Assembly: GCA_014729085.1 (NCBI GenBank)
Contig: WJKM01000009.1
Coordinates: 126,590 to 190,589, forward strand
Length of the DNA: 64,000 bases
Source of the DNA: Candidatus Dojkabacteria bacterium
Lineage (GTDB): Bacteria > Patescibacteriota > Dojkabacteria > B142 > WJKM01
Reading direction: 5' to 3'
The position numbers and the translations under genes are program-made. Shown in pieces: positions 38,194 to 57,135 of this stretch. Position 1 is the stretch's first letter, and each line of letters opens with the position of its first letter. Below the pieces are notes generated by a model, which was given only the letters and a program-made list of their open reading frames with translations, was not told where the DNA came from and searched no databases.

Positions 38194-38268
38194 GGCCCCA
38201 TAGTATAACGGCTAGTACACCGGGTTTTCATCCCGGCGATAGGGGTTCGATTCCCCTTGGGGTCACCA
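38194..38268 (+). tRNA. tRNA-Glu (anticodon UUC), CCA encoded; target of an integrative element
   Basis: GGCCCCA acceptor, anticodon stem-loop CCGGG-UUUUCAU-CCCGG, T-arm AGGGG-UUCGAUU-CCCCU, UGGGGUC-A-CCA 3' end. Confidence 0.85.
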
Positions 38269-39739: not shown

Positions 39740-39888
39740 TTTTTATTCTCTTGTAAATATAAGTCAATTATCAGATTCGAAAAGCCATTAATTTGTTCTA
39801 TCAAAGAATCGATTTGATCTTGATCTTTGAAACCTAAGTTTTTCAACCTTTGACATAATACCTTATAGCTTTCATCAATTTTTTGCAT
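39736..39888 (-). CDS. small ORF (50 aa) translationally coupled to the recombinase; candidate RDF/regulator
   Basis: Hand-found: MQKIDESYKVLCQRLKNLGFKDQDQIDSLIEQINGFSNLIIDLYLQENKK. Its TGA overlaps the recombinase GTG start (GTGA). Below the ORF-track size cutoff. Confidence 0.3.
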   Translation of the reverse strand: MQKIDESYKVLCQRLKNLGFKDQDQIDSLIEQINGFSNLIIDLYLQENKK

Positions 39889-39983
39889 AGGCTAAAACAA
39901 TATACTGTCTTAGCCTGAGTGCCTCTCAGCGTCTAATTAATATTTAAAATTAGTTTAATATCCTGCTTTTTTTAGCTTAGATA

Positions 39984-40817
39984 CTAAACTTTGTAAACAT
40001 CTTCGAGTTTCATATTTACGATTTTTCCATCTCTTTTTGTAATTTGCACATTTGAGTAATTTTTGCTTTTAATTTGGTTGATTAAATCAAGTTCTGTTAA
40101 TGCTTTATCTGTATTATTTTCTTCACCATATACAGTGTAGGATTTATCAATATTTTTTTTAATTTTTATTTGCTTATAAGCACTATCCCTAATAATATTT
40201 ATGATTTCCTTTTCTTGTTGTGTTAGCTTTTCGTTCATTTCCTCAATATATTCACTCAACTCTTTATAATATGAAACTTCTATTCCGATTCCTGATTTTT
40301 TTATTGCTTCTATAACTATTTCATTAAAATTGAAATATACAAAAGAGTCATGTTTAGTCATTAAGTATGCAAAAGAATTTATATCAGAAAAATATACATA
40401 ACCTTCTGATGTAATTACTAGATAAATCTTAACTGTTCCTATTACACTTAAGAAAAGTATATCTAGAGGTGGGTTTGTTACACTGTGCTGTTTTTCTAGA
40501 TTTTTATAAAAGTCCTTATCATAAAAAATATGTTTTAGATTTTGAAGTTGTTCGTTTGTTAGATTATATTTTCTAGCTTCATGTATGCATTGTAGATAGG
40601 TTAGATCCTTTATGCTGAATTTTCTCCACCCCTTTGATTTATCTCTTGAGTCTACTAACATTTCATCATTATCTAAAGAATTTATCTGCCTGTAAGTGAG
40701 TACACTATCTTTGACAGTATAAACCCTCTCTTCAAATGACTCGATGAAATCAGAACAATCTTTTCTCTTTCTGAGTCCCTTATATTGTTCTATTAAGTTT
40801 GGTGTAAGTAAAATCAT
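39984..40817 (-). CDS. hypothetical protein (element cargo)
   Basis: 277 aa, no recognised motif. Confidence 0.4.
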   Translation of the reverse strand: MILLTPNLIEQYKGLRKRKDCSDFIESFEERVYTVKDSVLTYRQINSLDNDEMLVDSRDKSKGWRKFSIKDLTYLQCIHEARKYNLTNEQLQNLKHIFYDKDFYKNLEKQHSVTNPPLDILFLSVIGTVKIYLVITSEGYVYFSDINSFAYLMTKHDSFVYFNFNEIVIEAIKKSGIGIEVSYYKELSEYIEEMNEKLTQQEKEIINIIRDSAYKQIKIKKNIDKSYTVYGEENNTDKALTELDLINQIKSKNYSNVQITKRDGKIVNMKLEDVYKV

Positions 40818-40894
40818 GGAATTATATGTTAATGTATAATTTATCTTACATGAATAGAATTATACAGTCAAGTATAATTTAAAGAGTTTTAAAA

Positions 40895-41275
40895 CTATGA
40901 AGCTGCAATTATTGAAAGTATCTTTGTGGTTTGTTCTTTTGTAAGTTCTGGATGAGGGTATATTCCTTTTCTGTAAGCTGTTATTATTCTTTCAATTAAG
41001 TTGAAAGGAATAGTCTTTGTCTGGTCCGTTGTCTCGAATCTAATTTGAACAGGGAACCTACCTTGCCAAGCATTACCTTCAATATTAATATTTGGAGCTG
41101 TAGTAGGTTTGTAGGGACCTGAAAATTCGAATGTTGATGTGTTGTACAAAAAGAGATAATCTTCAAGAGTAATTTTCATCATACTAGCTTTGACTGCTTC
41201 TTCTTCACCAAAAAGCATACGTTCAAATACTTCATCTTTTGTTTTGTCGTTGCATCTAAAAATATAACCTTTCAT
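40895..41275 (-). CDS. DCD (Development and Cell Death)-like PUA-fold domain protein
   Basis: Alignment by eye to plant DCD domains, hedged. GYIFRCNDKTKDEVFERMLFG ~ G(V/F)IFMCxxxTxxEClxxxLFGLP; LFLYNTSTFEFSGPY ~ LFLFNYSDRKLHGIF; NINIEGNAW ~ NINPYGW; PVQIRFE ~ PAQVQIRV; TKILSIIAAS ~ SKLISLLAS. 126 aa; start overlaps upstream gene stop (ATGA). Confidence 0.5.
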   Translation of the reverse strand: MKGYIFRCNDKTKDEVFERMLFGEEEAVKASMMKITLEDYLFLYNTSTFEFSGPYKPTTAPNINIEGNAWQGRFPVQIRFETTDQTKTIPFNLIERIITAYRKGIYPHPELTKEQTTKILSIIAAS

Positions 41276-41694
41276 TTTCTTACCTTTTTAGTTTCTAAAT
41301 GATTTTGAGTAATTGCAATAATATACATGTACTTACCAGCATAGAAATAAAATAATCTGGAAGTTTGAGCCCCTTTATGCTCTCTCAACTCTTCTACATC
41401 TTCTGGTAATTTCCTAAATAGCTTCTTATATTCTCCACTACAATATACCCTTTGTCTTTTAATATTATTTTTATCCAATGTTGTATTATTACACCCGCCT
41501 ATTGTTCTGATATCTTTAACAAACCTTTTGGATGCACTACCTGACAATGAAGATATTTCACTAATCTTATCATTAAAAAATTGAAAAGATATTAAAAAAG
41601 GTTCCCCTTCAGGATCTCCTCTATATGGATTTAAAGCAACTTTTTCGGGAATATATTTATTTGTAGCTGTTGTCTTTGGATCGGGTATTTGCAT
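41272..41694 (-). CDS. possible RelE/HigB(Gp49)-fold toxin-like protein
   Basis: C-terminus SRLFYFYAGKYMYIIAITQNH resembles the RelE/HigB C-terminal beta-strands (R-I-I-Y-x-F...Y-L-L-x-I). Weak. Overlaps both neighbours (translational coupling). Confidence 0.3.
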   Translation of the reverse strand: MQIPDPKTTATNKYIPEKVALNPYRGDPEGEPFLISFQFFNDKISEISSLSGSASKRFVKDIRTIGGCNNTTLDKNNIKRQRVYCSGEYKKLFRKLPEDVEELREHKGAQTSRLFYFYAGKYMYIIAITQNHLETKKVRK

Positions 41695-42221
41695 TAAGAA
41701 GACTTTTTAATTAAAGAAGAATAGTAAGCCTTCATATCTTCCAAACTAATAACATTATTTGAGCTAACAGATGCATGAATTTGCCCCCTTGCATTCTGCC
41801 ATGGATCTTCGTTATGTGACAACTGTTCTAAATAATCGCCATCATATTTCCCATATACCCTCCATATCTCCTCTAGTAAGTCCTGATTAGGTATATCTGA
41901 AATTTCTGCATCATTTACTTTCAGTTCAATTGGTCTATATCCATATTTCTTATATTTGTTGTATACTACCTTAATTGCAGGACCATGTACCCATGCTTCA
42001 ATTTCTTCTTTGAATATTGGCTCTTCCTTGTATACCAGATGCCAAGCTTGTGAATAGTACAAGAGCTTTTGTAATTGTTTATTTGTAATACTCTTACCTT
42101 CTTTGGACGCTTTCCAAATAAAAAATTTAGCGATATCTAATGCTGATTTCGTTTTTTGTTTTTTTGGTTTATTCATAAAAAGAAAGTAAGAACTTAACAT
42201 TATTATAAACGTAATTTTCAA
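41694..42221 (-). CDS. Panacea-domain (DUF4065, PanA/SocA-like) antitoxin-like protein
   Basis: KQLQKLLYYSQAWHLVYKEEPIFKEEIEAWVHGPAIKVVY matches the DUF4065 core (LQKLLYYaQ..hL...g.PLF.e.feAW.hGPV). Confidence 0.6.
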   Translation of the reverse strand: MKITFIIMLSSYFLFMNKPKKQKTKSALDIAKFFIWKASKEGKSITNKQLQKLLYYSQAWHLVYKEEPIFKEEIEAWVHGPAIKVVYNKYKKYGYRPIELKVNDAEISDIPNQDLLEEIWRVYGKYDGDYLEQLSHNEDPWQNARGQIHASVSSNNVISLEDMKAYYSSLIKKSS

Positions 42222-42239
42222 CTTTTCAATTCACTTTTA

Positions 42240-43289
42240 TCACTTTTTATAATCCAAATACTTCTTAATCTTATTATATTCTAAACACTTCATGTAGTTC
42301 TCCATATATTCGAAGTCTGGTTGATTTTGATTATTCATAGGTAACATTATTTTCTGTCGTTTTAATCTTGCTGTACCCATCTTGTAACCATAGCCATATT
42401 TAGCACGTTGTCTTGTTATCTGTTGAGATATAAATATACCTATATGTTTAGATGGGTTATTTAACCGTAATTTTCTACAATCATTTGAAAACAATGCCTC
42501 GTATGAATGATAAAAAGAATAGCCAACAGACCCATTTCGATTTACAGAAAGGCAACCTGCTTCTTTCGTTTTATTATCGTTGCTTACAAAATATCCGATA
42601 CCATTATTATTTGCAGTTGATGATACATAAGGCGTATTACCTGATATTCTTTCCTTTGCATAAATATCACGTCCAGATTCAATAGTGGCTACATCTTGAA
42701 TAAAAAACTCACCCCATTCTTTATCTTCTAATGGCTCAACATCTTTATAATCCTGCAATTCTGCTAATCTTTTTGAAACAACCTTTTTGTATTTATCCAA
42801 CTTATTTTGTTCTTTTTGCCTCATATAGGCTTCCATAAATTCATAGTCTGGGTTGCATTGTGAGTTGGTTGGTAAAAGTATTTTGCTTCTTCTCAATCTG
42901 GTTAGGGTTGCACCATTACTGCCCCAATTGAACTTATCCATTTGTCGAATGATTAAGGGGATAAGAAATTGTGCTATATCTTTGTTAAGGAACTCACTTC
43001 TTAAAACTTGGATATTCTGCCCTGTGTAAAACGATTTAGGCTGGTAGAAAACGGTTTGTGTATCAAGTCCAATTGTAATTACATTCCCTTCATCTAATTT
43101 GAATTTTTCTGCTTGCTTACCAATAAATGAATCCCACCCGTTATCTTTCTCAGAACGAGTTATATAAGGTGTATTACCTGTCTTATTACTTAATTTGTTA
43201 CGGTCGATACTACTTGATGAAGAATCAATATCAAAAGTATCTTCAAAAGTAAATTCCTTCCAGTTTTTATCTTCTAAACTTAATTTCAT
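42240..43289 (-). CDS. restriction-modification specificity subunit (HsdS-like; BcgIB-like)
   Basis: Two target-recognition-domain halves, each followed by a conserved TRLRRSKILLP/ARLKRQKIMLP ... PDYEFME/PDFEYME block; 349 aa. Confidence 0.75.
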   Translation of the reverse strand: MKLSLEDKNWKEFTFEDTFDIDSSSSSIDRNKLSNKTGNTPYITRSEKDNGWDSFIGKQAEKFKLDEGNVITIGLDTQTVFYQPKSFYTGQNIQVLRSEFLNKDIAQFLIPLIIRQMDKFNWGSNGATLTRLRRSKILLPTNSQCNPDYEFMEAYMRQKEQNKLDKYKKVVSKRLAELQDYKDVEPLEDKEWGEFFIQDVATIESGRDIYAKERISGNTPYVSSTANNNGIGYFVSNDNKTKEAGCLSVNRNGSVGYSFYHSYEALFSNDCRKLRLNNPSKHIGIFISQQITRQRAKYGYGYKMGTARLKRQKIMLPMNNQNQPDFEYMENYMKCLEYNKIKKYLDYKK

Positions 43290-43291
43290 AG

Positions 43292-45190
43292 TTATTTATC
43301 GTCATTTTCAAATAAATAATCTCTGCCTTGCATAATCATATTAAACTCAAAGGTAAGGTAATCACCTATAGTTTGCTCAAAGTCTTCTGGCTTTGGTATT
43401 TCGTCATTAAAGTAATAGAAAGAATGTAGCCATTCGTCATCTGGTTCTATGGTTGTTTTCACCATAAATTTAGTATCTGCTGGTGCATCATGTAGCCAAC
43501 AACTTAGTAAATGTTCTTTTCTTTCTTTTGCTCTCTCAGTTTCTACAAGTCCGATATGCTTACTTACCACAAATCCATCATCTTCAAAGTTAATAAATTT
43601 ACAATACTTTTTGAGGTTATGTGGTTTATGAGATGTAAATATGGCTATGCATGGATTAGTTCCAATACCATAGAATGTATCCTTATTTAGTGTAATTACA
43701 CCTTCCAAAGTATGTTTTTCTAATATTCTTTTTTTAACCTGTCTATCTTCTTTTGTTTTACCTACCATAGTTGATTGAGGAATTATGACAGCTGCTCGTC
43801 CTTTGTCAGTTAGACTATCAAGTAAATGTTCAATGAAATGTATTTCTGATAAATGTGCAGTATCTTTTCCTTTGGCTTGTGAATAAGGAGGATTCATTAA
43901 ACCTACAGTATAATTATTTTTCCTCATCTCTTCTGCACTTCTCTTGAGAAAGTCATCTTTTAAAAGATTACTCTTTCCATCTCCACGTAAAATCATATTA
44001 GTAGTTGCAATGGCAAACATATCTTCTCTAATTTCTATTCCGTGTATTTGTTCTCTTTTAATTTTATTCTGTTTATTCTTATCTGCCTTCTTTAACATCT
44101 TATACATTGCGGTAATCAAAAAACTTCCTGTACCACATGTGGGGTCAAAGACAATATCATTTGGTTTTATATCCAATAAATCACAAAATAATTCAGTAAT
44201 ATGACTAGGAGTTAATACAACACCCAAAGTTTGACCATCACCACCACTATATCTAATAAATTCACCATAAAAACGTCCTAGAACATCCTCTTTAGAGTTT
44301 GCTACAACGCTATCAAAAACATTCTTTTTTAAATATTCAGTAAAGTATTTCAGCGGTGTTTTCTCTAGTCTTTTATCTACCTGATTAAGTATAGTTCTAT
44401 CCATTACAATATTAAATTGACTCAAAACTTGCTCCTTTTTGATTTCTGGCTTTACCTCAACACGTGTCATGTGTGTAGATAAAGCATCAAATATTATATT
44501 TCCATCTGTTTTTACGCTATCTCCTTTTAATAAGTCTGGAATATCTGGATTCTCATTTAAAGCTAGGAGAATAGCAGATACGACAAGGGGTTTTTCCTTA
44601 TCTCCAAGTTGTCCATAGTTTCTTAAATCTTCGTGAAGTGCTTTCGATTTCTTTAGTATTACTTCTAATTCAACCGTTTCGGGTGGCGTTTCATTAAGTA
44701 CCTGTTCTTTATAGTATCGTACGATATTTTCTTTAGAAAAATTTTCAAAATTTTCAACTGGTTCTAATAATATATATTCGTTTTCATTGACATATATAGG
44801 TCGAATCATGTGATGTTTCTCATCACCAGAACAACCAAAAGCAAATACCTTTTTGAAATTTGTTTTCTGTACTATTTGCCTAGCATAGTGCAAAGCCCCA
44901 TTTTCTGCATATTCAGTTATCGATTTTGTATCTGTTGCGAGATGAGAGTTGCTCTCATCTTCATATCTTGCTTGTTTGTCTAAATCAGCTTTATCCTCCA
45001 TTACAAGAATAAACTCATCTGATTTAGCTGTAAATTCTGGAAAGCCTACATTCCCTGTACCTTTCTTTGATGAAGTTTTTAGTGCATTTTCTATCTCTTT
45101 AATCCCACTTCCATTTGGTGTAAATTTAATGCCCACCTTGCCAAGTAATTTACCAACAAAGAAGTCAGTTATTTTTTCATTTTTACTCAT
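43292..45190 (-). CDS. fused endonuclease/N6-adenine methyltransferase subunit (BcgIA-like Type IIB/IIG; alternatively HsdM)
   Basis: Gamma-class MTase motifs FDPTCGTGSFL (motif I) and NPPYS (motif IV); N-terminal region with candidate PD-(D/E)xK (SDEFILVMEDK). 632 aa and 349 aa partner sizes resemble BcgI A/B (about 637/341 aa from memory); no HsdR is present in the element. Confidence 0.65.
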   Translation of the reverse strand: MSKNEKITDFFVGKLLGKVGIKFTPNGSGIKEIENALKTSSKKGTGNVGFPEFTAKSDEFILVMEDKADLDKQARYEDESNSHLATDTKSITEYAENGALHYARQIVQKTNFKKVFAFGCSGDEKHHMIRPIYVNENEYILLEPVENFENFSKENIVRYYKEQVLNETPPETVELEVILKKSKALHEDLRNYGQLGDKEKPLVVSAILLALNENPDIPDLLKGDSVKTDGNIIFDALSTHMTRVEVKPEIKKEQVLSQFNIVMDRTILNQVDKRLEKTPLKYFTEYLKKNVFDSVVANSKEDVLGRFYGEFIRYSGGDGQTLGVVLTPSHITELFCDLLDIKPNDIVFDPTCGTGSFLITAMYKMLKKADKNKQNKIKREQIHGIEIREDMFAIATTNMILRGDGKSNLLKDDFLKRSAEEMRKNNYTVGLMNPPYSQAKGKDTAHLSEIHFIEHLLDSLTDKGRAAVIIPQSTMVGKTKEDRQVKKRILEKHTLEGVITLNKDTFYGIGTNPCIAIFTSHKPHNLKKYCKFINFEDDGFVVSKHIGLVETERAKERKEHLLSCWLHDAPADTKFMVKTTIEPDDEWLHSFYYFNDEIPKPEDFEQTIGDYLTFEFNMIMQGRDYLFENDDK

Positions 45191-45266
45191 TTGAGAATTA
45201 TATTTTTAAACATAAAGAAATTACTATTTTTATAATAAAGCACTTAGCTATAGATAGCAAACTACC

Positions 45267-46403
45267 TTAGACAAGGTTTATTTGACATTTTTCTGTATTC
45301 ATTTTTTCTTCAGATAGCAACTCATTAGTAATGGATTTGAACTCTGAAATTTGTGCATTAATTTCATTTCGAATATTTGAATATTCATAATCATCAAATT
45401 CTTTTAAAACTTTCTTACATAATTTCCATACTCTTTTAGTAGTAGTGTTGCTATATCTATTTTCAAAAATCTCTTTTGCCTTATGAATACCTAAATCACT
45501 ACATAACCTAAAACAAGTAATAATTGCCCATTCCTCACTTGGTTTTATGTCTTGGTCCCAAATATATTCATACATTCTTTTGATAGTAGGTAATCGCATA
45601 GGAATAAACTTAAATTCATCAGAAAACAAGCTCTTATTCAAATCATAGAGTAGTATCTTTTTGCTTAAACCACTATCAAAGATATCTTTAAGTGTAAGGC
45701 GTTCAACTTTCCTTCCTAATGCCCATGAATATTTTGCGTTTGTTCTCTGATAATTTTGCATGCGATATTCAAATCTTAGAATATTATTTTGTTTTAAATT
45801 CTGAACAAGTCCTTTTTCTTTATCTGTTTTATGATTAATCGCAACTAAAGAGGGGGCTTTTGCATATATTCCAATTCCCGTTGAAGTTGTAAATTCTCGA
45901 ATGGAAACACCATTTTCTTTATAATTTTCAAACTTTAAAGAGTGTCTCCATTTCCACCATAATCTTCTTGTAAATTCAATAAACTCAGTAGCTCCAACTG
46001 GACCATCTAGAATTATATTTTTCGATACTGTAGCAAAAGACACATAGCTATTTTTAAGTGCTTCGTTTGATATATTTATTCCCATATCATAAAGCTTTTT
46101 AGTAAAGTTACCTATAAAGTCATCGAAATCTTCATTTGATAACTCTTCTACATTATTTTCAAATAGTATTTTAGGAGCAGAAAATTCAATGTAAAGCTTG
46201 CCATTACCTCGAAAAGTTAAACTTGGATAATACTCACCTGTTGTATCTATCAACTGACCTTGCTTTATAAATCGTTTCTCCTTGATATCCATCTCGGGCT
46301 TTCTTAACATAAGGACTTTATAAACTTTCCCATAAATATCTTGAACTTGAATAGGTTTAATTATTTGATAGTTTGTTGTGTTTATTTTTATTGTATCTAG
46401 CAT
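45267..46403 (-). CDS. hypothetical protein (element cargo; possible replication/partition function)
   Basis: 378 aa, first large gene inward of attR; no confident motif. Confidence 0.35.
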   Translation of the reverse strand: MLDTIKINTTNYQIIKPIQVQDIYGKVYKVLMLRKPEMDIKEKRFIKQGQLIDTTGEYYPSLTFRGNGKLYIEFSAPKILFENNVEELSNEDFDDFIGNFTKKLYDMGINISNEALKNSYVSFATVSKNIILDGPVGATEFIEFTRRLWWKWRHSLKFENYKENGVSIREFTTSTGIGIYAKAPSLVAINHKTDKEKGLVQNLKQNNILRFEYRMQNYQRTNAKYSWALGRKVERLTLKDIFDSGLSKKILLYDLNKSLFSDEFKFIPMRLPTIKRMYEYIWDQDIKPSEEWAIITCFRLCSDLGIHKAKEIFENRYSNTTTKRVWKLCKKVLKEFDDYEYSNIRNEINAQISEFKSITNELLSEEKMNTEKCQINLV

Positions 46404-46684
46404 TTTTACTCTGGTAACCAGTTATATCAGTTCTCTTATCAATTTTAATTAAGATTTCAAAGAATTTAACTAACCTTTGCATTTCTAATTCTGTTAGTTT
46501 TAAAGATTCTTTTTTCTTCATGATTGCTAGTTTAAGAAATAATTAACTAGCTTTTTATCATGAACCAAGTATTTTTGTATTACACGGCGGTATATATTCA
46601 AACAAGAAGCGGTTGAAGTTTGAAATTCTTAATGAAGTAACCAAGCTCTACAAGCCTTTCGTGGAAAGTGTTGTAAAATGATTT

Positions 46685-46698
46685 CCTTGGGGTCACCA
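46685..46698 (+). repeat. attR core (direct repeat copy 2, tRNA-Glu 3' fragment)
   Basis: Exact 14-mer CCTTGGGGTCACCA preceded by GATTT (near-match to tRNA GATTCC). Confidence 0.7.
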
Positions 46699-47161: not shown

Positions 47162-50100
47162 ATGACCAAACCGCTCAAAAAGGTCTTGATTGAAACTATC
47201 CACATTATTCACAATACAGTAAAAAGAGTACAGCTAAAAAACTTAAAGCTGTATTTTTTTATTTTGCCTTTTTTGCTTTTAACATTTACACCTGTTTTTG
47301 CTCAAACGACAGACGAATATAATTACTCAGATTGTGGATTTGTTATCGATGATTCAGATTCAGGTTGTTCAGAAGCATATGGTAATTGGAAACTACAGAA
47401 AATAGGAAATAAAGGGACATCATTACTTTCTCCAAAAGACACTTTCTTGCCTTCTGTTACATGGGTTCCAGATTATAAAAACCTGAAAGGGCAGGTTGAG
47501 GTATTTGCAACCATTCCAAGAATTGAGGGAGAAAATTTGTCCGAAGTTGCTTGGTACAAAATAAAACATAGTGAGGGTACAAGCGATTATTTTGTAAATC
47601 AAAAAGAAAATGCAGGAGATATAGTATCACTTGGAATATATAATTTCGATGGAACCGAAGTTTCAATAGATTTATATGGATCTGGTGGTGAGGTAGTTGT
47701 GGCAGATACTGTTTGTTTTGGTAGATGCTCAATAGGTGACATAACTCCACCAAGGATTGAAGAAGTTAAAGGACATAGTTATATGGGAGAATTACATGTT
47801 CAGTCAAAAATAACAGATGAAGGGACAGGTGTAAAGAATGCTTATGTATCAATTCAGGGAAATATTTACCCTATGAATGCAAAAGGAGATATTTATTCAG
47901 CGATTGTTCCATATATTCCAGGAACTGATTTGGAATGGTATATTCTTACATATGACAACGCAGGAAATGAAGCTATATGGGAACCTGGGCGTGGATATGT
48001 AACAAGAGGGGGAGGTTTAAATTTAGGAGTACCACCTGAGGCTGTTGATTTTGTTTGCTATAAAGAAGAGTTTAATAATACAGTCCCACCTGCAACACCA
48101 GGATCAGATCCATGTGAATGGACAACAGGAGATCCTGTAAATACTGTAAACGGAAATTTAATGGAAAGTGTAAATTTAATAAATATTTCCGGACGTCCTT
48201 CAATTAACCTTACTATCTACTATAACAGTCAAGGTACAGGTCTCTCAATTTTCGGTGAAAGTTGGCTTTATGATTATAATTACCATGTAACAGAGATGGA
48301 TAACGCTGACTTCAGTGGGGCTTTTGTGCAATATCCTTCAGGTAGCAATGCAATGTTCGAAAACTTCAAGTCTCCAGATGGAGTAAGAGACAAACTTGAA
48401 AAAATAGGAGATGGGTATCTTCTTACTCTTCAAGATCAGACAAAAATCTATTTTGATTCAAATGGAGATATTTCTAGATGGGAAGATATTAATAGAAATG
48501 GTCTAAACTTTGAATACTCAGAACAGATTAAATTTGTAAATTTTTCAAAGCTGTCAAAGATAACAGCAGATTCAGGTAGAAAAATTACATTTGAATACAA
48601 TGATGTTGGTTTAGTTTCTCAAATAAACGCACCAGAGAATAAAATTATCAAATTCGAATACAATGACACAGATGATTTAATTAAAATAATCAAACCTAAA
48701 GAAAGAGGGATTATATTTGAATACGATAATCACAGCATTACAAAAAAAATCAGTCCACAGGGACATGCATACTACGAAAATATCTTCGATAATCAAAGAA
48801 GAGTTATAAAACAAGTTGCAGGTACATCATTTACGCAGGAATATATTTATAATGACAATGAAACAATAGTTAAAAATCTTAACGGTTCACAAGCTGTCTA
48901 TAGTTATAACGAGGATTACTTAATGGTCAGCAATACAGATGAAGTTGGGAATACCAAGACATTTGAATACAACAATAAAAAGCAGATAATAGCTGAAATC
49001 GACGCTGAAGGGAAACGATATGAATACACATATGATGAAAATGGCAACCAGATACATATAAAAGATCCAATGGGATATGAGATAGAAAGAGAATTCAATG
49101 AATTTAATAAACCTGTAAAAGAAATCAACCAGAATGGAAAAGAAACTAGATGGGAATATGACAAAAAGGGAAATTTAGTCAAAATAATTAACTCAAATGG
49201 CAACGAAAAAATATTCAGCTATAACGAATATGGACAACTAATTGAGCAAACAGACTTTAATGGAAATAAAACTGTTTTCAAGTATACAGCTGAAGGTGAT
49301 CTTAAAAAGATAATAGATGCAGATGGAAATGAAATTGTATATACATACGATGAACTTGGAAGAATATTGACTGAAACAAACAAACGTGGGATTACCTACA
49401 CATACACCTATGATGTAAATGACAATCTTCTTAAAATTGAGGGACCTCTTGGATATACAAAATCATTTGAATATGACAAAAATAACAGACTTATTAAAGA
49501 GACTGACTCTAAACAAGAAATGATTTCGTATACATACGACAATTCGGAAAATATTTCTTCCATCTCAAATCAACTGCAATTTGTTACGAGTATGGAGTAC
49601 GGATCAATGAACGAATTTGCAAAAGGAATAGATGCTGAGGGACATATAACTGAATATGCATATCATCCTACGTACAAAATATCTCAAGTTAGACAGGCAG
49701 CTGGAACCTCAAAAGAAGCTATTTCTAATTTTGAATATAACAACGTAAAACTTCAAAAAAGAATTATAGATGCAGAAGGAAAGATTACCGAGTTTGTATA
49801 TGATGATTTATATAGAATAGTTAAAAAAATTGGAGACGTGAACGGAATTGAAATTGAAACACGTTTTAAGTACAATCCTGTTGGAGCCCTTGTTAAACAA
49901 ATCGATCCAAACGGAAATGCAGTTGAATATACTTTAGATAATTTAGATAGAGTAATCGAGCAAAAAGATGCCGAAGGAAACATTACAAAGTACGAATACG
50001 ACCCGAACTCAAACATTATAAGCACAACCAATCCAAGAGGCTTTAAGACAAAATTTGAATACAATAAGTTAAACCAACTTGTAAAGCAAATCAATTCAAT

Positions 50101-53100
50101 TGGTGCAGAAACAGAATACGAATATGACGGAAATGGGAATTTAGTTAAACAGGTTAATCCAAACGAAACAAGTACCAAGTTTATCTACGATGAGCTTGAT
50201 CGAATGGTAAGAGAAGAAAAATACTCAGAAGAAGATGAATTGTTAATTCAAATAAGATATGAATATGACTTAAATGGAAACATAACCAAAATAATAAATC
50301 CAAGAGGCTTTGAAACAAAATTTGAGTACGATGCAGCGAATCAAAATACAAAGATAATAGATGCCTATGGCAACATTATTGAATTTAAATACGATAAAGT
50401 AGGAAACAAGATTGAAACAATAGACAGAAATGGAAATTCAACAACAAATGTATATGACGAACTTAATAGAATAGTTGCAGAGATAAATGCAGAAAATAAT
50501 AAAACAAGTTATGGATACAACAAAGTAAATAACTTAACAAACATAACTGATGCAAAAGGCAACATTACAACATTAAAATATGATGGAGTAAACAGACTTA
50601 TTCAAAAAATTGATCCTTTGTCTGGTGAAACAAAAAAAGAATACGATCCTGCTGGAAATGTTTTAAAAGATATAGATCAGAATGGTCATGAGACAATCAA
50701 TGAATATGACAAAATAAACAGACTAATTAAAACAACCAATGCAGAAGGAGGAGTAAAAGAAATAAAATATGACAAAAATAGCAATATCGTAGAAATAAAA
50801 GACGAAAATGGAAATATTTCTCAAAATACATACGACAAACTCGATAGACTAGTTAAAACAGTAGATGCAGAAAATCAGGTAACAAAATACGAATATGATG
50901 TAATGGGAAATATGATTAAAAAGACAAATCCAAGAGGATATGAAACAAAATATGAATACGACGCTCTAAATAGACTTACTAAAACTATCGATGCAAAAGA
51001 AGGAGAAACAATATTTGAATATGATGAAAACTCAAATGTAGTTAAAACAATAGACCCAAATGGGATTTCTACAAAACACATCTATGATAAGTTAGATAGA
51101 CTGATTACTAAAATAGAAGCTCATGAATCCCTCCTTCATCAAGATTCCGGAGGGCAGGCAGGTGGAGGAGAAGCTGATACCAATGTCACAACACAATATA
51201 AATACGACAAAGAAGGAAATATTATTGAAGTAGTAAATCCAAAAGGAAATTCAACAAAGTTTGAATACGACAAGATATACAGACAAACGAAAATTACAGA
51301 TGCAAAAGGGAACTATACAAAATTTAAATACGATGAGGTAGATAATGTAGTACAAGTAACGGATAGAAATGGAAATGTTTCTACAAAGGAATATGACGCA
51401 CTAAGAAGAATTGTAAAGGAAATAAATGCAGAAAACCATAAGACAGAATATAGATATGATCCAAAAGGAAATATTAAAACAACAATAGACCCAAGAGGAA
51501 ATCCAACAAAGTTTGAGTACGACAAAATAGACAGATTAACTCAGACAATAGACGCCCTGGGCGGAGTTTGGAAAACCGAATACGATGCAGTGGGGAATGT
51601 TTTAAAAGAAACAGATGCAAATGGACATGCCAATAAGTACGAATACGACAAAGTATACAGGACTACAAAACAAACAAATGCAGAAGAACATTTTTCAAAA
51701 TTCAAATACGATGAAAATGGGAATGTCATTGAGACGCAAGACAACAATGGAAATGTAACATCATTCACATATGATGAACTAGATAGACTTGTTAAAAAAA
51801 TAGATGCGGAAGATGGAGAATGGTTATACGAATACGATGCAGTAGGAAATCTTCTATCTGAAACAGATGCAAACGAACACACAGACACGTACGAATACGA
51901 TAATATGTACAGATTATCGGTTCTCACAGACGCAGAAGGAAATACAACAAAATATGTTTACGACCTAAATGGCAATACAGTAGAAATAATAGATGGGAAT
52001 GGAAATTCAACAGAGAATGAAGTTGACGCTCTAGACCTCGTTATCAAAGTAACAAATGCTGAAAACGAGACAACAGAATATACTTACGATAAAGAGGAAA
52101 ATAAGATAAATAAGATAGATCCGGATGGTGTTGTTACTCACTTTGATTACGACAAGATTTATCAGCTTGTTAAAGTAACTCTGAATTACAAAGATACAAA
52201 CTTTACTGACTTTGATACAAATGTAGACACAAGCTACGAATATGATCCAAATGGGAATTTAACTAAAATCACAGATCCGAAAGTAAATGCTACAACTTTT
52301 GAGTACGATGCTTTAAATAGACAAATAAAGGAAATAGATGCAGAAGGAAATATTTGGAGATTTGAATATGATCCTGTTGGAAATAAAACAAAGAGAATAG
52401 ATGCAAACGGTAATTCTACAGTTTATGGATATTACGCAGACGATCAACTTCAAAATATCAGTTATTACGATGGGACAAACACATCATATGAATACGATCC
52501 AAATAACAATAAGATAAATATGCAGGATAGAATTGGAACAACAGATTGGACGTATGATGCATTAAATAGAAATACTTATGTAAATGATGCATTGAACAGA
52601 GAACTCACATACACATATGATCCAGTTGGAAACAGAACAAGTATGAAATATCCTGACGGAAAAATAGTAAAGTATTCCTACCTAAAAAATGACTGGATAA
52701 ACACATTCACAGATCCAGAACAAGGAGTAGTTAAATACGATAAAGACCATGTAGGAAATACAGTATTTATAGATAACCCAAATCAGACACAAACAACAAT
52801 AGATTATGATCGTGTATACAGACCTACAGAAATTCTCAATGAACAAATAGAGCAGGCTGCAAAAACAAACTCCAGATTTGAATATACATACAACGAAGTA
52901 GGACTTAAAACAGAAGTAGAAGCAGAATATGCGTGGAGAAAACCAAGTGTAGTTAGAACAGAGTACGTTTACGACAAGCTAAGAAGACTAAAGGAATCGG
53001 AAGATTCAGAAAACAAGTATTACGAATATCTTTATGACAGAGCAAGCAATAGAACCCGGATGCAAACTAACGACGATGAAACAACACCAAACCAATATGA

Positions 53101-55342
53101 CGGAATAAAACAAGGCTATAAATACAATAATATAAATCAGGTAATAGAAATAATAGAAGAAGGTGTGAGTGATATAACGAAAAAAAGAACACAAGGAAGA
53201 AGTCAGACATTTATTTATTTAGAAAATACTCTAGGTTTAAGAAATAAATATCACAATTTGGTAAATGAAATTGAGGCTCAACGAGGAGGACATATACCCG
53301 AAGAAACAGCAGAAGAACTTCTAGATTTATTGGAAAGGTTAGAGATGTTAGAAGGAGAAGAGAGTACAATTCTTTATGAGGATGCGATATTAATAATTGA
53401 AGAAGTAATAACAATAATAGAAGACGAAGTAGTACATGAAGGAACATTAAACAGCTTGCTTGCAAAAGTAGATGATGTAGAGCTAGAGGCAAAAGAGAAA
53501 GGCAGAGAAGTTGAGTGGAAAGAAAAGAAAGAGATAAATACACAAAAAAAGAATCTACTGAAGACAACAACATTTAGATACGATAATAATGGAAATAGAA
53601 TAAACGAACAATGGACCATGCCTAACGGCAGGCAGACCGGATCAACAGGACCTGCCTACCAAGGATTTGATTTTGGATATGATCCTGAAAATAGATTAAC
53701 AATTGCAATGAACTATCAACAAAATGACACAGGGAACAGAGTAGATAGAGGAGTAACAACAATGAATTACGATGGAGATGGAAGAAAACTAGTTAAGGTA
53801 TTTGATCCAAAAAGTCCGTTGGGGGAATGGGCAGATCCAAATCCACTTGATCCAGCATATGGAGTAGATGGAGGAGCTAAGAACATAGAATACGTATACG
53901 ACAATCTAGATCCAGTAGCTGAATATAATACATGGAACTCTCAACACGACAACTTCTACCGTGCCAGAGGGCAGGCAGGTAGAGGAGACATGAATAGAAT
54001 AGTAATGATGCAAAACTTCAAATCAGGGACACAGGGTCAGCGTTATTGGTACCACTATGATGCTTTAGGTTCAACTGTGGGACTTACAAAACACTCAGGA
54101 CAGTCACACCACAACTATAGATACGGAGATTTTGGACTTATTGAGACTATTACTGGGAAATCTGGAAACACATCAGGAGGAACATTTACAGATCCACATA
54201 ACCACTACACCTACACAGGGCAGGAGTGGGATGACCATATGAATGTATATGAATTCTACTCAAGAACTTACGATCCCTATACCGGCAGCTGGATGAGGCA
54301 GGATGATTATAGAGGGGATATCTCAGATCCAATGTCACTTCATAGGTATATGTATGTGAATCAAAATCCTATTAATTGGTGGGATTTATATGGTTACAAG
54401 ACAAATAATATTCCTATTTTGGGTCCTATTAATCATAAAAGTAATCAAATTAATAAAAGTATTAATTATGAACCTACCGTACTTACTCAACAAATCATGG
54501 AGTCTGTCAGACTAAGTTATGATCCATGCAATCGACAAACTTTTGATAAAGGATTCTTAATACCTACCGAATTGGAATCTCTTGCTGGAGGAGCAGCATT
54601 TGTACATAGGATGGGTTATAATATGTCAGATGGATTGTTTCTTGGTTCAATTGAGAATACTATATATATGCAAGAATCACAGAAAGATTTTGCAAGAAGA
54701 ATTTTCGATCAAGAATATAGAGAGAATGCTTTATATCCAGAACGATATCCTTTAAGAAAAACAAGAGAAGATTGGAGAGAGTTTAATGACAAGATTACAT
54801 TTTCTCTTGGAGTAAATCCACACAAACAAGTAAATAATGGATTGGCAACAAACATATTTGAAGGAACAGTAAATTCACTAACAGATCCACAGCCTGTAGG
54901 TTCAACACAATGGACATATGACACATTAAATATGGGTTTTGAGGGATATATGGTGTATAGTACGGTTACAGCAATAGATGACTTTTTAATGAAGAGAATA
55001 CCTGGAAATAATTCTATAAGTAGAAGACCAGCACAAGATGTGGTGCAGTATGAGATGTATAAGGAGCAGCTCAAATCGCAGCAAGCAGCTACAGTATTTA
55101 CTCAAAATGGGGAGTTGAAACCAAACGTGATTAGTAATAGTCATAGCATTATCGATGGAAAAGATTTGAAAAATCCTAGTGTAATTAAAGAATTGACTAA
55201 AGATGGATCAAAGATAGATAGTTGGGAGAAAATGAGTACTGATTCATACCCTAGTCCATCGGGAGATTTTCAAGTTCATTATTATCAAAATAAGGATACC
55301 GGTAAGATATATTATAATATTGATTATAAGGCTAAATTTTAA
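47162..55342 (+). CDS. rhs: RHS/YD-repeat polymorphic toxin (signal peptide, N-terminal domain, YD-repeat shell, RHS core, variable C-terminal toxin)
   Basis: Signal peptide; DPVNTVNGNL plug motif; dozens of YD repeats (YEYDxxGNL...); RHS core end YDPYTGSWMRQDDYRGDISDPMSLHRYMYVNQNPINWWDLYGY (degenerate DPxGL); ~310 aa unique C-terminal domain. 2726 aa. Confidence 0.9.
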   Translation: MTKPLKKVLIETIHIIHNTVKRVQLKNLKLYFFILPFLLLTFTPVFAQTTDEYNYSDCGFVIDDSDSGCSEAYGNWKLQKIGNKGTSLLSPKDTFLPSVTWVPDYKNLKGQVEVFATIPRIEGENLSEVAWYKIKHSEGTSDYFVNQKENAGDIVSLGIYNFDGTEVSIDLYGSGGEVVVADTVCFGRCSIGDITPPRIEEVKGHSYMGELHVQSKITDEGTGVKNAYVSIQGNIYPMNAKGDIYSAIVPYIPGTDLEWYILTYDNAGNEAIWEPGRGYVTRGGGLNLGVPPEAVDFVCYKEEFNNTVPPATPGSDPCEWTTGDPVNTVNGNLMESVNLINISGRPSINLTIYYNSQGTGLSIFGESWLYDYNYHVTEMDNADFSGAFVQYPSGSNAMFENFKSPDGVRDKLEKIGDGYLLTLQDQTKIYFDSNGDISRWEDINRNGLNFEYSEQIKFVNFSKLSKITADSGRKITFEYNDVGLVSQINAPENKIIKFEYNDTDDLIKIIKPKERGIIFEYDNHSITKKISPQGHAYYENIFDNQRRVIKQVAGTSFTQEYIYNDNETIVKNLNGSQAVYSYNEDYLMVSNTDEVGNTKTFEYNNKKQIIAEIDAEGKRYEYTYDENGNQIHIKDPMGYEIEREFNEFNKPVKEINQNGKETRWEYDKKGNLVKIINSNGNEKIFSYNEYGQLIEQTDFNGNKTVFKYTAEGDLKKIIDADGNEIVYTYDELGRILTETNKRGITYTYTYDVNDNLLKIEGPLGYTKSFEYDKNNRLIKETDSKQEMISYTYDNSENISSISNQLQFVTSMEYGSMNEFAKGIDAEGHITEYAYHPTYKISQVRQAAGTSKEAISNFEYNNVKLQKRIIDAEGKITEFVYDDLYRIVKKIGDVNGIEIETRFKYNPVGALVKQIDPNGNAVEYTLDNLDRVIEQKDAEGNITKYEYDPNSNIISTTNPRGFKTKFEYNKLNQLVKQINSIGAETEYEYDGNGNLVKQVNPNETSTKFIYDELDRMVREEKYSEEDELLIQIRYEYDLNGNITKIINPRGFETKFEYDAANQNTKIIDAYGNIIEFKYDKVGNKIETIDRNGNSTTNVYDELNRIVAEINAENNKTSYGYNKVNNLTNITDAKGNITTLKYDGVNRLIQKIDPLSGETKKEYDPAGNVLKDIDQNGHETINEYDKINRLIKTTNAEGGVKEIKYDKNSNIVEIKDENGNISQNTYDKLDRLVKTVDAENQVTKYEYDVMGNMIKKTNPRGYETKYEYDALNRLTKTIDAKEGETIFEYDENSNVVKTIDPNGISTKHIYDKLDRLITKIEAHESLLHQDSGGQAGGGEADTNVTTQYKYDKEGNIIEVVNPKGNSTKFEYDKIYRQTKITDAKGNYTKFKYDEVDNVVQVTDRNGNVSTKEYDALRRIVKEINAENHKTEYRYDPKGNIKTTIDPRGNPTKFEYDKIDRLTQTIDALGGVWKTEYDAVGNVLKETDANGHANKYEYDKVYRTTKQTNAEEHFSKFKYDENGNVIETQDNNGNVTSFTYDELDRLVKKIDAEDGEWLYEYDAVGNLLSETDANEHTDTYEYDNMYRLSVLTDAEGNTTKYVYDLNGNTVEIIDGNGNSTENEVDALDLVIKVTNAENETTEYTYDKEENKINKIDPDGVVTHFDYDKIYQLVKVTLNYKDTNFTDFDTNVDTSYEYDPNGNLTKITDPKVNATTFEYDALNRQIKEIDAEGNIWRFEYDPVGNKTKRIDANGNSTVYGYYADDQLQNISYYDGTNTSYEYDPNNNKINMQDRIGTTDWTYDALNRNTYVNDALNRELTYTYDPVGNRTSMKYPDGKIVKYSYLKNDWINTFTDPEQGVVKYDKDHVGNTVFIDNPNQTQTTIDYDRVYRPTEILNEQIEQAAKTNSRFEYTYNEVGLKTEVEAEYAWRKPSVVRTEYVYDKLRRLKESEDSENKYYEYLYDRASNRTRMQTNDDETTPNQYDGIKQGYKYNNINQVIEIIEEGVSDITKKRTQGRSQTFIYLENTLGLRNKYHNLVNEIEAQRGGHIPEETAEELLDLLERLEMLEGEESTILYEDAILIIEEVITIIEDEVVHEGTLNSLLAKVDDVELEAKEKGREVEWKEKKEINTQKKNLLKTTTFRYDNNGNRINEQWTMPNGRQTGSTGPAYQGFDFGYDPENRLTIAMNYQQNDTGNRVDRGVTTMNYDGDGRKLVKVFDPKSPLGEWADPNPLDPAYGVDGGAKNIEYVYDNLDPVAEYNTWNSQHDNFYRARGQAGRGDMNRIVMMQNFKSGTQGQRYWYHYDALGSTVGLTKHSGQSHHNYRYGDFGLIETITGKSGNTSGGTFTDPHNHYTYTGQEWDDHMNVYEFYSRTYDPYTGSWMRQDDYRGDISDPMSLHRYMYVNQNPINWWDLYGYKTNNIPILGPINHKSNQINKSINYEPTVLTQQIMESVRLSYDPCNRQTFDKGFLIPTELESLAGGAAFVHRMGYNMSDGLFLGSIENTIYMQESQKDFARRIFDQEYRENALYPERYPLRKTREDWREFNDKITFSLGVNPHKQVNNGLATNIFEGTVNSLTDPQPVGSTQWTYDTLNMGFEGYMVYSTVTAIDDFLMKRIPGNNSISRRPAQDVVQYEMYKEQLKSQQAATVFTQNGELKPNVISNSHSIIDGKDLKNPSVIKELTKDGSKIDSWEKMSTDSYPSPSGDFQVHYYQNKDTGKIYYNIDYKAKF
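48400..53200 (+). repeat. tandem YD-repeat coding array within rhs
   Basis: Recurrent xYxYDxxGN(L/I)xxxxD units at protein and DNA level; these generate the spurious antisense ORFs listed in the track. Confidence 0.8.
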
Positions 55343-55351
55343 CTTTTAAAT

Positions 55352-55861
55352 ATGAAAAAACAAAATATATGGGGTAACTTTAATAAATTAATAAATTCTG
55401 ACATATCTATTAAAGATTTTGAAGAATGGATCTATACAGATAAAACTATAGAAAAGATAATTGGTAAAGATAATTACGTCACACTTGTATCAATGAATTA
55501 CACTAAATCTGATAGTAAAGAAAAAGTACAAAAATACTTAGTTGAGTTATTTGAATCGTTAGAACCCGAGTTATATGATAAGTATAGAGTTTATAATATA
55601 TTAAAAGGGATGTTAGATGGACAAAAGGATTTAGTATCTGGGTGTAGAAGGTTAGTTCAATTAAGAAAAAGAGGACTGGAATTTATACCTAAAATTTTTG
55701 TAGGTTTTGATTCTGAACTAGATGATGTTCCTCTTCCTGAGCAATATTCACAATGGAACAAAAATGCTTTAGGAGAGAAATTAAAAAAAATTGATTATTA
55801 CAGGGAAGATATTATTAAATATTCAAAGAAATTAATTAAGGAATTAGATATTAGAAAATAA
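55352..55861 (+). CDS. putative cognate immunity protein for the rhs C-terminal toxin
   Basis: 169 aa, cytoplasmic, starts 9 bp after the rhs stop; position-based inference. Confidence 0.5.
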   Translation: MKKQNIWGNFNKLINSDISIKDFEEWIYTDKTIEKIIGKDNYVTLVSMNYTKSDSKEKVQKYLVELFESLEPELYDKYRVYNILKGMLDGQKDLVSGCRRLVQLRKRGLEFIPKIFVGFDSELDDVPLPEQYSQWNKNALGEKLKKIDYYREDIIKYSKKLIKELDIRK

Positions 55862-56230
55862 TTAGTATCTACTAACCTTGAATTTAGTTATAAGTTTGTA
55901 GAAAAATCAAGGGATGGATATTCTTTTATGGATATGTTAATTTATGCTTTTTGAATAAATTGTTTTTGTTTTCGTACCTATACCAGACACATAAATTTCT
56001 ATGGGATCGCCTTTACTCTTAATTGGAACATCAATTCCCCAAGTTGTTTCTTCAATTTTACATTTTTTTATCAGTTGCTGAACTATCCATAATAATGTCA
56101 CTATTCTGTGGCAAATATTTTTCAACATATCTTCCGTCATCTTTTTTTGTCGAAAAATTTGATAGTATCAATATTACAACACAAAGTGAATTTGCCAAAC
56201 TAATAGAAGGTATCGGAAATAATAGTAATC

Positions 56231-56362
56231 ATGTCTAATGGAAGAGTTGCTTACTGGGATGATATAACCCAAACTGTAGTCATTAAGAATCCAAATACAG
56301 TCTATGGTGGAACTTCTTTCAGGGCAATTAATGGGAAGGATTATTGTGACAATTTAAGATAA
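56231..56362 (+). pseudogene. decayed toxin-tip remnant (44-aa C-terminal fragment, frameshifted relative to ORF 56023..56238)
   Basis: MSNGRVAYWDDITQTVVIKNPNTVYGGTSFRAINGKDYCDNLR resembles a toxin-domain C-terminus. It overlaps the upstream ORF's stop (ATGTCTAA), so a single frameshift would fuse the two. Confidence 0.3.
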
Positions 56363-56390
56363 ATATTTAATAACTTATTAAAATTTAAAT

Positions 56391-56576
56391 ATGAAAATTA
56401 TTGACGAAAAGGATCAAGAATTGACTTTAAAGCTTTCTTACAGTGAGCTTCTGATCCTAAACAATGCTCTGAATGAAATCATAAATGGGATTGAAATCCC
56501 TGAATCTAATACAAGAATTGGGTATTCTAAAGAATATGTTACGAGCCTGTTGAATAAAATTAACAAATTATTATAA
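56391..56576 (+). CDS. small protein (61 aa), candidate immunity protein of the decayed toxin tip
   Basis: Starts 28 bp after the remnant; position-based inference only. Confidence 0.3.
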   Translation: MKIIDEKDQELTLKLSYSELLILNNALNEIINGIEIPESNTRIGYSKEYVTSLLNKINKLL

Positions 56577-56587
56577 ATATATTCTTT

Positions 56588-57135
56588 AAAAATCAGGACA
56601 GTCACACCACAACTATAGATACGGAGATTTTGGACTTATTGAAACCGTTACTGGGAAATCTGGAAACACATCAGGAGGAACATTTACAGATCCACATAAC
56701 CACTACACCTACACAGGACAGGAGTGGGATGACCATTTAAATATGTATGAGTTTTATGCAAGAGCTTATGATCCATATACAGGAGTATGGATGAGGCAGG
56801 ATAATTATAGAGGAGAAATACGAAACCCAATGAGTTTGCATAGGTATATGTATGTAAAGAATTCTCCTGTAAATTATATAGACATGTATGGGTATACATC
56901 TGGTTACTATATTGGTTGGGATGATTACAAAGAAGATTGGCATGAATTTTTAGATGATGTAGAAAATCAAAATCCACAATCTTATAGAGAATATCATGAT
57001 TTGATATCAAGTAATGGTGGTCAATACAAAGAATTTTCAAAAGTGAATCCTTGTGCTGGGAAAACACTTTTTGATGTTTATTCTGATGTTTCAAAAGAAT
57101 ATAGTTTTAAGTCTGGAAAGTTTTTATCTCATTGA
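56588..57135 (+). other. orphan rhs C-terminal toxin cassette (start-less core homology plus alternative toxin tip)
   Basis: 56588-56745 is ~95% identical to rhs 54095-54250 and stays in frame with continuing homology to ~56890 (DMYGY), then a novel 80-aa tip. A TAA sits immediately upstream and the first ATG (56743) is internal. Confidence 0.7.
56743..57135 (+). CDS. orphan RHS C-terminal toxin fragment (as an ORF from the first ATG)
   Basis: MYEFYARAYDPYTGVWMRQDNYRGEIRNPMSLHRYMYVKNSPVNYIDMYGY is paralogous to the rhs core end, followed by a different C-terminal domain. Confidence 0.6.
   Translation: MYEFYARAYDPYTGVWMRQDNYRGEIRNPMSLHRYMYVKNSPVNYIDMYGYTSGYYIGWDDYKEDWHEFLDDVENQNPQSYREYHDLISSNGGQYKEFSKVNPCAGKTLFDVYSDVSKEYSFKSGKFLSH

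Follow-up and report, generated by a model that had tools for sequence, protein, structure and literature searches.

The subject of this analysis is a gene of the rhs type in a 64,000-nucleotide stretch of contig WJKM01000009.1 (positions 126,590 to 190,589 of the forward strand; assembly GCA_014729085.1) from a Candidatus Dojkabacteria bacterium, which belongs to a candidate-phylum lineage of the candidate phyla radiation (CPR). This whole stretch is called the window, and all positions refer to it unless a related locus is named. The gene encodes a 2726-residue protein with a shell of YD/RHS repeats, an Rhs-associated core and, beyond the core, a C-terminal region (CT); a small gene follows in the immunity position. 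The locus is an rhs-type polymorphic-toxin locus in a CPR bacterium, and a fairly ordinary weapon locus. An earlier note on this DNA had described an RHS polymorphic toxin with a tip that could not be assigned and an adjacent immunity candidate, and this core of its account survives, the tip being unassigned in curated databases. The features on which the argument turns are as follows.

47162..55342, + strand: rhs gene, 2726 aa, ATG start, TAA stop, 8,181 nt (open reading frame; MBD3362702.1)
47162..47302, + strand: predicted Sec signal peptide, aa 1-47 (read by eye from the translation)
47342..47719, + strand: Golvesin_C-like domain, aa 61-186 (Pfam E 3e-12, 47.2 bits against a cut-off of 31.6)
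48128..48343, + strand: DUF6531, aa 323-394, bordering the YD-repeat region on its N-terminal side (Pfam E 3.8e-8)
48344..54181, + strand: YD/RHS repeat shell, about aa 395-2340, bounds approximate (Pfam and NCBIfam repeats)
53126..53584, + strand: very acidic insertion of ~150 aa within the YD-repeat shell, aa 1989-2141 (read from the translation)
54182..54394, + strand: Rhs-associated core (aspartyl autoprotease plug), aa 2341-2411 (TIGR03696, 44.2 bits against a cut-off of 32.5)
54383..54397, + strand: boundary motif DLYGY, aa 2408-2412, within PINWWDLYGY (PxxxxD-L-x-G-Y) (sequence)
54398..55045, + strand: N-terminal part of the CT, aa 2413-2628, 216 aa (matches itself only)
55046..55339, + strand: toxin domain, aa 2629-2726 (homology search, alignments and AlphaFold2 model)
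55352..55861, + strand: putative immunity protein of 169 aa, MBD3362703.1, beginning 9 bp past the rhs stop codon

The two protein records, MBD3362702.1 (GF362_03215, recorded as 'hypothetical protein') and MBD3362703.1 (GF362_03220, annotated in the same words), are each singletons in a 15-billion-protein collection. The size and RHS/YD-repeat nature claimed earlier for the larger protein were confirmed by the open reading frame together with the Pfam and TIGR repeat and core matches. Pfam RHS_repeat (PF05593) matches 36 stretches of it (E 1.8e-192) and the YD repeat TIGR01643 matches 28 (E 4.2e-152); with an 8.2-kb open reading frame bearing 36 YD-repeat matches, an origin by chance is impossible. 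The model of the enterobacterial RHS element core protein, NF041261, gave a partial match only (447 bits against a cut-off of 2000). At the N-terminus, as read from the sequence, basic residues lead into the hydrophobic core LYFFILPFLLLTFTPVFA, which is followed by QT, and the Golvesin_C-like domain beyond it possibly serves in glycan or cell-surface binding. A Pfam scan of the protein detected no PAAR, prePAAR, VgrG-associated or transmembrane-domain (TMD) N-terminal domain, and no cell-wall-binding repeats. The acidic insertion in the shell (EETAEELLDLLERLEMLEGEE...) is helical by eye and has no family match, Pfam included; it is perhaps a lid or an external handle.

The boundary between core and CT is marked by a variant of a motif established for other RHS toxins. 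The core terminates ...NQNPINWWDLYGY / ...DISDPMSLHRYMYVNQNPINWWDLYGY, with DLYGY at aa 2408-2412. In Rhs1 of Photorhabdus laumondii the toxin boundary is PxxxxDPxGL, with a first DPxGL-like motif upstream; the catalytic Asp lies in the second DPxGL, the substitution D1338N abolishes cleavage, and the toxin begins after the Leu (PMC8636562). Aligned with PxxxxDPxGL, PINWWDLYGY keeps the P, the spacing, D2408 and G2411, with Leu replacing Pro and Tyr replacing Leu, and since P-x4-D and the Gly are retained, D2408 is the candidate catalytic Asp. Read against the same study, the window protein differs from Rhs1 in having DPMSL as its first motif and a spacer of 14 rather than 17 residues (PMC8636562). 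In a set of 22 RHS proteins sharing the toxin domain of the window protein, the boundary motif is DPxG in 19, DAxGL in two and DHDGR in one, its final position varying freely, and an orphan rhs cassette downstream of the window gene bears a variant of the same type, DMYGY. Given the variant motifs in relatives and the DMYGY of the cassette, DLYGY is better described as a lineage variant than as a wreck, and the sequences suggest that it is lineage-specific yet maintained. What had been called a degenerate cleavage motif does depart from DPxGL, but as a variant that keeps the candidate catalytic Asp, the Gly and the PxxxxD spacing. Cleavage is predicted after Y2412, and would likely yield a CT of 314 aa (aa 2413-2726).

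The CT had been presented earlier as a C-terminal domain of ~310 aa without an assignable motif. It is indeed without a curated match, searches of Pfam, NCBIfam and PDB sequences with the 314-aa CT all being empty, but it consists of two parts, of which only the last ~98 aa are conserved. In 5.8 billion proteins, a word-indexed search with the CT found a lone relative (P0001): the 313-aa RHS tip of a metagenome-assembled genome (MAG) of the Acidimicrobiales, whose similarity is limited to the last 115 aa (50% identity) and which matches the window toxin domain with E 1.6e-25. Searched exhaustively with HMMER, a set of 1.84 billion cluster representatives yielded 517 matches at E<=1e-3 and 180 at E<=1e-10; all except the window protein align to the last ~93-100 aa, a few extending upstream by some tens of residues more. 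When metagenomes were scanned with the CT in full (310 aa), no close relative turned up. A further candidate, P0003, listed with '96% identity', was set aside, being 100% identical and the window protein itself.

The 216 residues that precede the conserved domain (aa 2413-2628) are soluble, with a maximum Kyte-Doolittle-19 score of 0.87, and low in Gly and Ala. Equivalent segments in related RHS toxins are of 43 to 344 aa, are mostly unrelated to one another, and tend to be more hydrophobic, with a higher content of Gly and Ala. The arrangement resembles that of bipartite CdiA-CT toxins, in which a variable N-terminal segment is joined to a conserved C-terminal catalytic module, and by this analogy aa 2413-2628 are proposed to form an entry or adaptor module.

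The terminal 98 residues belong to a family with the consensus ...DW.KY.T...SPSG.FQVHFY.N..TG....DYK..F. In alignments of 30 and of 32 sequences the Lys of W-x-K and the H-x-Y-x-N residues are invariant and D-Y-K is nearly so, and the window domain retains every one of these positions (K2690, H2706, Y2708 and N2710, invariant; W2688, D2721 and K2723, near-invariant). The domains found upstream of it in full-length relatives are RHS_repeat, eCIS_core (DUF4157; eCIS, extracellular contractile injection system), DUF637 (CdiA-type) and NPCBM, and a copy on a Campylobacter concisus plasmid lies in a filamentous-haemagglutinin locus, annotated 'hypothetical protein'. Such promiscuous placement at the C-terminus is the signature of a polymorphic-toxin domain. 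In two related loci (L037, 2455-3096; L038, 2149-2790) the toxin domain has a frameshift in its SPSG-FQVH segment and continues, in frame, into the immunity protein encoded downstream, which looks like a pseudogenised toxin whose immunity has been retained.

Pfam, NCBIfam, PHROGs and PADLOC hold no match for the window toxin domain and no recurrent match among 30 of its relatives, sequence and profile searches of the PDB found nothing, and a full-text literature search for motif strings including FQVHFY returned no papers. Neither a well-known toxin family for the CT nor an annotated immunity partner, a pairing against which the earlier note had set its own description, came out of the curated and structure searches. 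An AlphaFold2 (AF2) model built from the 32-sequence alignment (predicted local distance difference test score, pLDDT, 88.3) has a long N-terminal helix, two short helices and a beta-meander, with the conserved residues on neighbouring beta-strands. The i, i+2, i+4 pattern in the DSSP string would put H2706, Y2708 and N2710 on one face of the sheet, and, on the model, the active site is probably this exposed beta-sheet face, where H2706/Y2708/N2710 lie beside W2688/K2690 and D2721/K2723. A Foldseek search of the model against the PDB gave no match below E 0.16, with no known toxin fold among the 50 matches listed; similarity to the BECR/microbial RNase-like folds (barnase, colicin D/E5, RelE, EndoU) was considered in the light of this search. 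RNases predominate among polymorphic toxin tips of about 100 aa. From this predominance, from the size of the domain and from the Lys/His/Tyr/Lys set on the sheet face, metal-independent RNA cleavage is taken as the best guess at its chemistry, a guess to be held tentatively, with some other nucleic-acid or nucleotide substrate a fainter prospect and the remaining probability left to something else altogether.

Foldseek against BFVD returned probable homologues without function, annotated as a phage 'minor capsid protein', a 'putative hemagglutinin' and a 99-aa uncharacterised protein; the toxin fold is matched at low significance by A0A8S5QZ36 (the phage 'minor capsid protein') and A0A1V0SD22_2 (the 'putative hemagglutinin', from Indivirus). 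These structural matches hint that phage MuF-type polymorphic toxins may also use the 98-aa domain.

In related loci the toxin domain is directly followed by a gene for a conserved, acidic protein of ~115-130 aa (isoelectric point, pI, ~4.8) with the consensus MKVKC...W..GK.Y.VL...FEI...P..W...P..W...GFWE.YFDDD. This protein, referred to here as the usual immunity protein (for example L007, 5292-5675, and L063, 3448-3831, of the set L002-L063), was found in all 16 species-representative genome loci, which span several phyla and include Acidimicrobiales, Nocardia, Paenibacillus, Pseudomonas, Prosthecobacter and Acidobacteriaceae, as well as in 37 of 40 metagenome loci (some of them near-duplicates) and in 4 of 4 further contigs, that is, in 57 of 60. 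The three metagenome exceptions are a copy disrupted by an insertion sequence, a toxin with a C-terminal extension, and the locus L058. The family has no match in Pfam, NCBIfam, PHROGs or PADLOC, and in the PDB only a weak SH3-like similarity (E ~0.05). A six-frame hmmsearch of the window (--max) found no member of it, the best E being 0.18. Two members elsewhere, in L059 and L062, bear a Cys-rich C-terminal extension.

In the window the corresponding position is occupied by the gene for the 169-aa protein, and its placement 9 bp downstream of rhs, as stated earlier, was confirmed by the open reading frame on the same strand. The protein is basic (pI 8.9), and its single-sequence AF2 model is all-helical (pLDDT 68.9). 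It has no match in Pfam, NCBIfam, PHROGs or PADLOC; a search of PDB sequences gave one match at chance level (E 0.46), Foldseek of the model against the PDB gave nothing significant, and an exact-sequence contig look-up gave no record. A relative was found in L058, an RHS locus in a Candidatus Gracilibacteria MAG, where an orphan cassette with a divergent copy of the 98-aa toxin domain is followed by a 100-aa basic protein in the immunity position. Residues 87-165 of the 169-aa protein (nt 55610-55846) align to this 100-aa protein at 28% identity (BLASTP E 4e-8), and the Smith-Waterman score (z = 11.4) was reached by none of 2000 shuffles, with control comparisons at E > 1. The sole near-miss in the scans of curated libraries was this 100-aa protein, whose score for DUF2489, 23.4 bits (E 6.5e-5), falls below the cut-off of 27.

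The finding of related proteins in the immunity position in two independent CPR genomes is the main positive evidence for an immunity role of the 169-aa protein, and the sequence comparison supports its being a second immunity type for the 98-aa toxin family, so far seen only in these two genomes. The earlier expectation that it is the immunity protein has thus gained a homologue in the same position in L058, but the protein proves to be unlike the family that fills this position in 57 of 60 loci. Two other relationships were considered and dismissed on control comparisons at E > 1: an internal duplication within the 169-aa protein, and kinship with a second immunity-position protein of L058 that also has 169 aa and is unrelated. 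The latter follows the main CT of that locus (L058, 95-2295), which is of another type and ends ...HIPVDQFKYSN.

It might instead be that the 169-aa protein has nothing to do with immunity and serves as a chaperone or regulator, or that its small gene is simply unrelated, with the producer intrinsically insensitive or its immunity encoded elsewhere. Such a view would accommodate the lack of relation to the usual immunity protein, which is encoded in none of the six frames of the window, the basic pI as against the acidic one of the usual proteins, and the absence of any homologue but the protein itself in 5.8 billion proteins. However, the gene lies where an immunity gene canonically does, 9 bp downstream on the same strand, and the C-terminal half of the protein is homologous to the open reading frame behind another member of the toxin family, in a CPR genome independent of this one, with controls at E > 1. 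An unrelated function is therefore judged improbable, and the 169-aa protein is treated below as the putative immunity protein.

Hydrophobic N-termini, signal peptides and transmembrane (TM)-like segments are missing from the usual immunity family and from the 169-aa protein alike, which argues for the cytoplasm as the site of toxin action. A different site, on the envelope or in cell division, would be expected if the toxin domain acted outside the cytoplasm, and in that case it may be PT6 of Nachmias et al. PT6 is an 85-aa, Pfam-negative protein of Moraxella canis that is linked to DUF4157/eCIS and Rhs carriers; it is toxic in Escherichia coli only when periplasmic, causes filamentation and also kills yeast (bioRxiv 10.1101/2021.10.19.465003). 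The likeness is one of description (~85 aa, no Pfam match, DUF4157/eCIS and Rhs carriers), and the phyla in which PT6 occurs, Firmicutes, Actinobacteria and Proteobacteria, overlap the range of the 98-aa family. Yet PT6 is without a reported immunity gene (bioRxiv 10.1101/2021.10.19.465003), whereas the 98-aa family has a very consistent one, and the lack of signal peptides and TM segments in both immunity types again points to the cytoplasm; action at the envelope is considered unlikely. Were the family PT6 after all, it would already have a name and an envelope target would be likelier. By description only, the 98-aa domain also resembles PT1-PT9 as a group in being short (<150 aa), Pfam-negative and found on many carriers (bioRxiv 10.1101/2021.10.19.465003). 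Crystal structures exist for PT1 and PT7 (bioRxiv 10.1101/2021.10.19.465003), and the empty PDB profile search argues against identity with either, provided that the copy of the PDB used includes them.

One further element belongs to the rhs system.

56590..57135, + strand: orphan rhs cassette (core fragment and alternative CT)

The cassette, which is absent from the earlier note, completes a classic rhs locus. Its core fragment of about 97 codons has 87.5% nucleotide identity over 271 bp to 54088-54357 of the main gene and ends in its DMYGY at 56881, after which a different CT of 79 aa, without a Pfam match, begins. No immunity candidate was found after the cassette, the next genes encoding an ArsR regulator, a thioredoxin-like protein and an ArsP permease.

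Taken together, the locus probably encodes an RHS cocoon toxin exported by Sec and its cognate immunity protein, with a cassette for recombination alongside. The RHS protein would leave the cell through Sec, the host presumably being single-membraned and no PAAR or type VI secretion system (T6SS) domain having been found. The YD shell would enclose the CT, and the aspartyl autoprotease would cut past DLYGY, between Y2412 and K2413. Once a target cell is touched, entry may be mediated by the first 216 aa of the CT, which are unique to this protein, and the 98-aa domain would work as an enzyme in the target cytoplasm. The producer would be protected by binding of the cytosolic 169-aa protein to the toxin, and the orphan cassette could allow the toxin to be swapped through homologous recombination.

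Several points weigh against this scheme. DLYGY is without the Pro of DPxGL, and autoproteolysis is predicted from sequence. The segment aa 2413-2628 is less hydrophobic than its counterparts, and its role in entry is pure analogy with the bipartite CdiA-CTs. The 169-aa protein is unrelated to the usual immunity family (hhalign probability 0.5%) and has one relative, its role following from position and one homologous case, and its AF2 model, at pLDDT 68.9, is from a single sequence. No fold or family assignment backs RNase or any other chemistry, and a basic character, which might be expected of a nucleic-acid binder, is not consistent among the toxin domains of the family, their mean pI being 6.9.

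An attached life on hosts is generally assumed for CPR bacteria, and in such an episymbiont the RHS protein could be mainly an adhesin or host-interaction factor, or the locus could be in decay and its toxin never released. This lifestyle, the Golvesin_C-like domain at the N-terminus, the deviation of DLYGY from DPxGL and the gene remnants in 55862-56590 could all be read in that way. But the 8.2-kb rhs open reading frame is intact and every invariant toxin residue is kept, as are the candidate catalytic Asp and the PxxxxD spacing, the DMYGY of the orphan cassette suggests a maintained lineage-specific motif, and an adjacent immunity-type gene together with an orphan cassette is typical of active rhs loci. 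An adhesin or a decaying locus is accordingly regarded as quite unlikely, and as less probable than either alternative above, and the exported cocoon toxin is retained as the preferred account. A bolder extension of that account, in which the 98-aa module would represent a new enzymatic toxin fold or chemistry and not a known fold or a diverged RNase, present in >500 protein clusters (RHS, contact-dependent inhibition (CDI), eCIS and phage MuF-like) and countered by two unrelated immunity solutions, one of them CPR-only so far, is put forward as speculative and rather doubtful. If it held, ultra-small episymbionts would join contact-dependent warfare with a Sec-exported RHS weapon.

Among known systems, WapA/WapI of Bacillus subtilis comprises a Sec-exported, wall-associated YD/RHS-repeat toxin with a tRNase CT and a cognate immunity protein. 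The window locus resembles it in having a YD-repeat protein of large size (>2300 aa) that starts with a signal peptide (predicted here), in the presumed absence of an outer membrane, and in a polymorphic CT that follows the Rhs core with an immunity gene directly downstream. It differs in that the window protein has a Golvesin_C-like domain and no detected cell-wall-binding repeats, and in that its toxin domain and the 169-aa protein match no Pfam toxin or immunity family. With T6SS Rhs effectors (P. laumondii Rhs1-Tre23; PMC8636562) and the TcB/TcC cocoons it shares a YD shell closed by a C-terminal aspartyl-protease plug and an orphan cassette of the kind common at such loci, and a motif related to PxxxxDPxGL would demarcate the toxin. 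Unlike them, it has no PAAR, VgrG-binding or TMD N-terminus, its motif is PxxxxDLYGY, and its host is a CPR bacterium. CdiA systems share the 98-aa module, which also occurs on DUF637/CdiA carriers; unlike CdiA-CT, the window CT is borne by an RHS carrier and not by a two-partner-secretion filament, and the entry function of aa 2413-2628 is proposed by analogy.

The current picture of polymorphic toxins is left unchanged by the locus. What it adds is a bipartite CT, an unannotated toxin family with its partner, an alternative immunity type in CPR bacteria, and the orphan cassette. It points to a large toxin family and a conserved immunity partner, neither of which is described in Pfam, NCBIfam, PHROGs, PADLOC or the PDB. 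The invariant Lys, His, Tyr and Asn of the toxin domain are ready targets for mutagenesis, and the two CPR lineages with a different immunity protein offer a small natural experiment on how immunity specificity evolves. To our knowledge, RHS weapons in Patescibacteria have barely been studied; that a reduced genome keeps an 8.2-kb toxin gene intact, along with an orphan cassette, suggests that antagonism matters to these episymbionts.

Between the 169-aa gene and the orphan cassette lie possible remnants of other toxin genes, both speculative assignments.

56231..56362, + strand: 43-codon open reading frame, possible remnant of the C-terminus of another toxin (...VVIKNPNTVYGGTSFRAINGKDY...; no Pfam match)
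56391..56576, + strand: 61-aa open reading frame, possibly a leftover immunity gene of the toxin-tail remnant (no family match)

Taken as a whole, 56146-56576 (+) may hold what a frameshift has left of a third toxin tail (...VVIKNPNTVYGGTSFRAINGKDYCDNLR), with the 61-aa open reading frame behind it.

Upstream of rhs, a 14-nt direct repeat, CCTTGGGGTCACCA, occurs at 38255-38268, the 3' end of a tRNA-Glu gene (38194-38268), and again at 46685-46698. The two copies bound an integrative element of ~8.4 kb (38194-46698) at tRNA-Glu, with a serine recombinase (38228-39739, -). The right-hand repeat ends at 46698, so the rhs gene starts 463 bp outside the element, which bears out the earlier placement of the gene immediately beyond it. 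Its other genes include, by reading, those for a type I restriction-modification methylase (43292-45190, -), which has an NPPY motif, and for a specificity subunit (42240-43289, -). Farther downstream in the window, a 262-aa protein (62270-63058, +) has D-x-D-x-D-G-L-S-D repeats and a Pro/Thr-rich tail; by eye, these repeats are thrombospondin type 3-like calcium-binding motifs.

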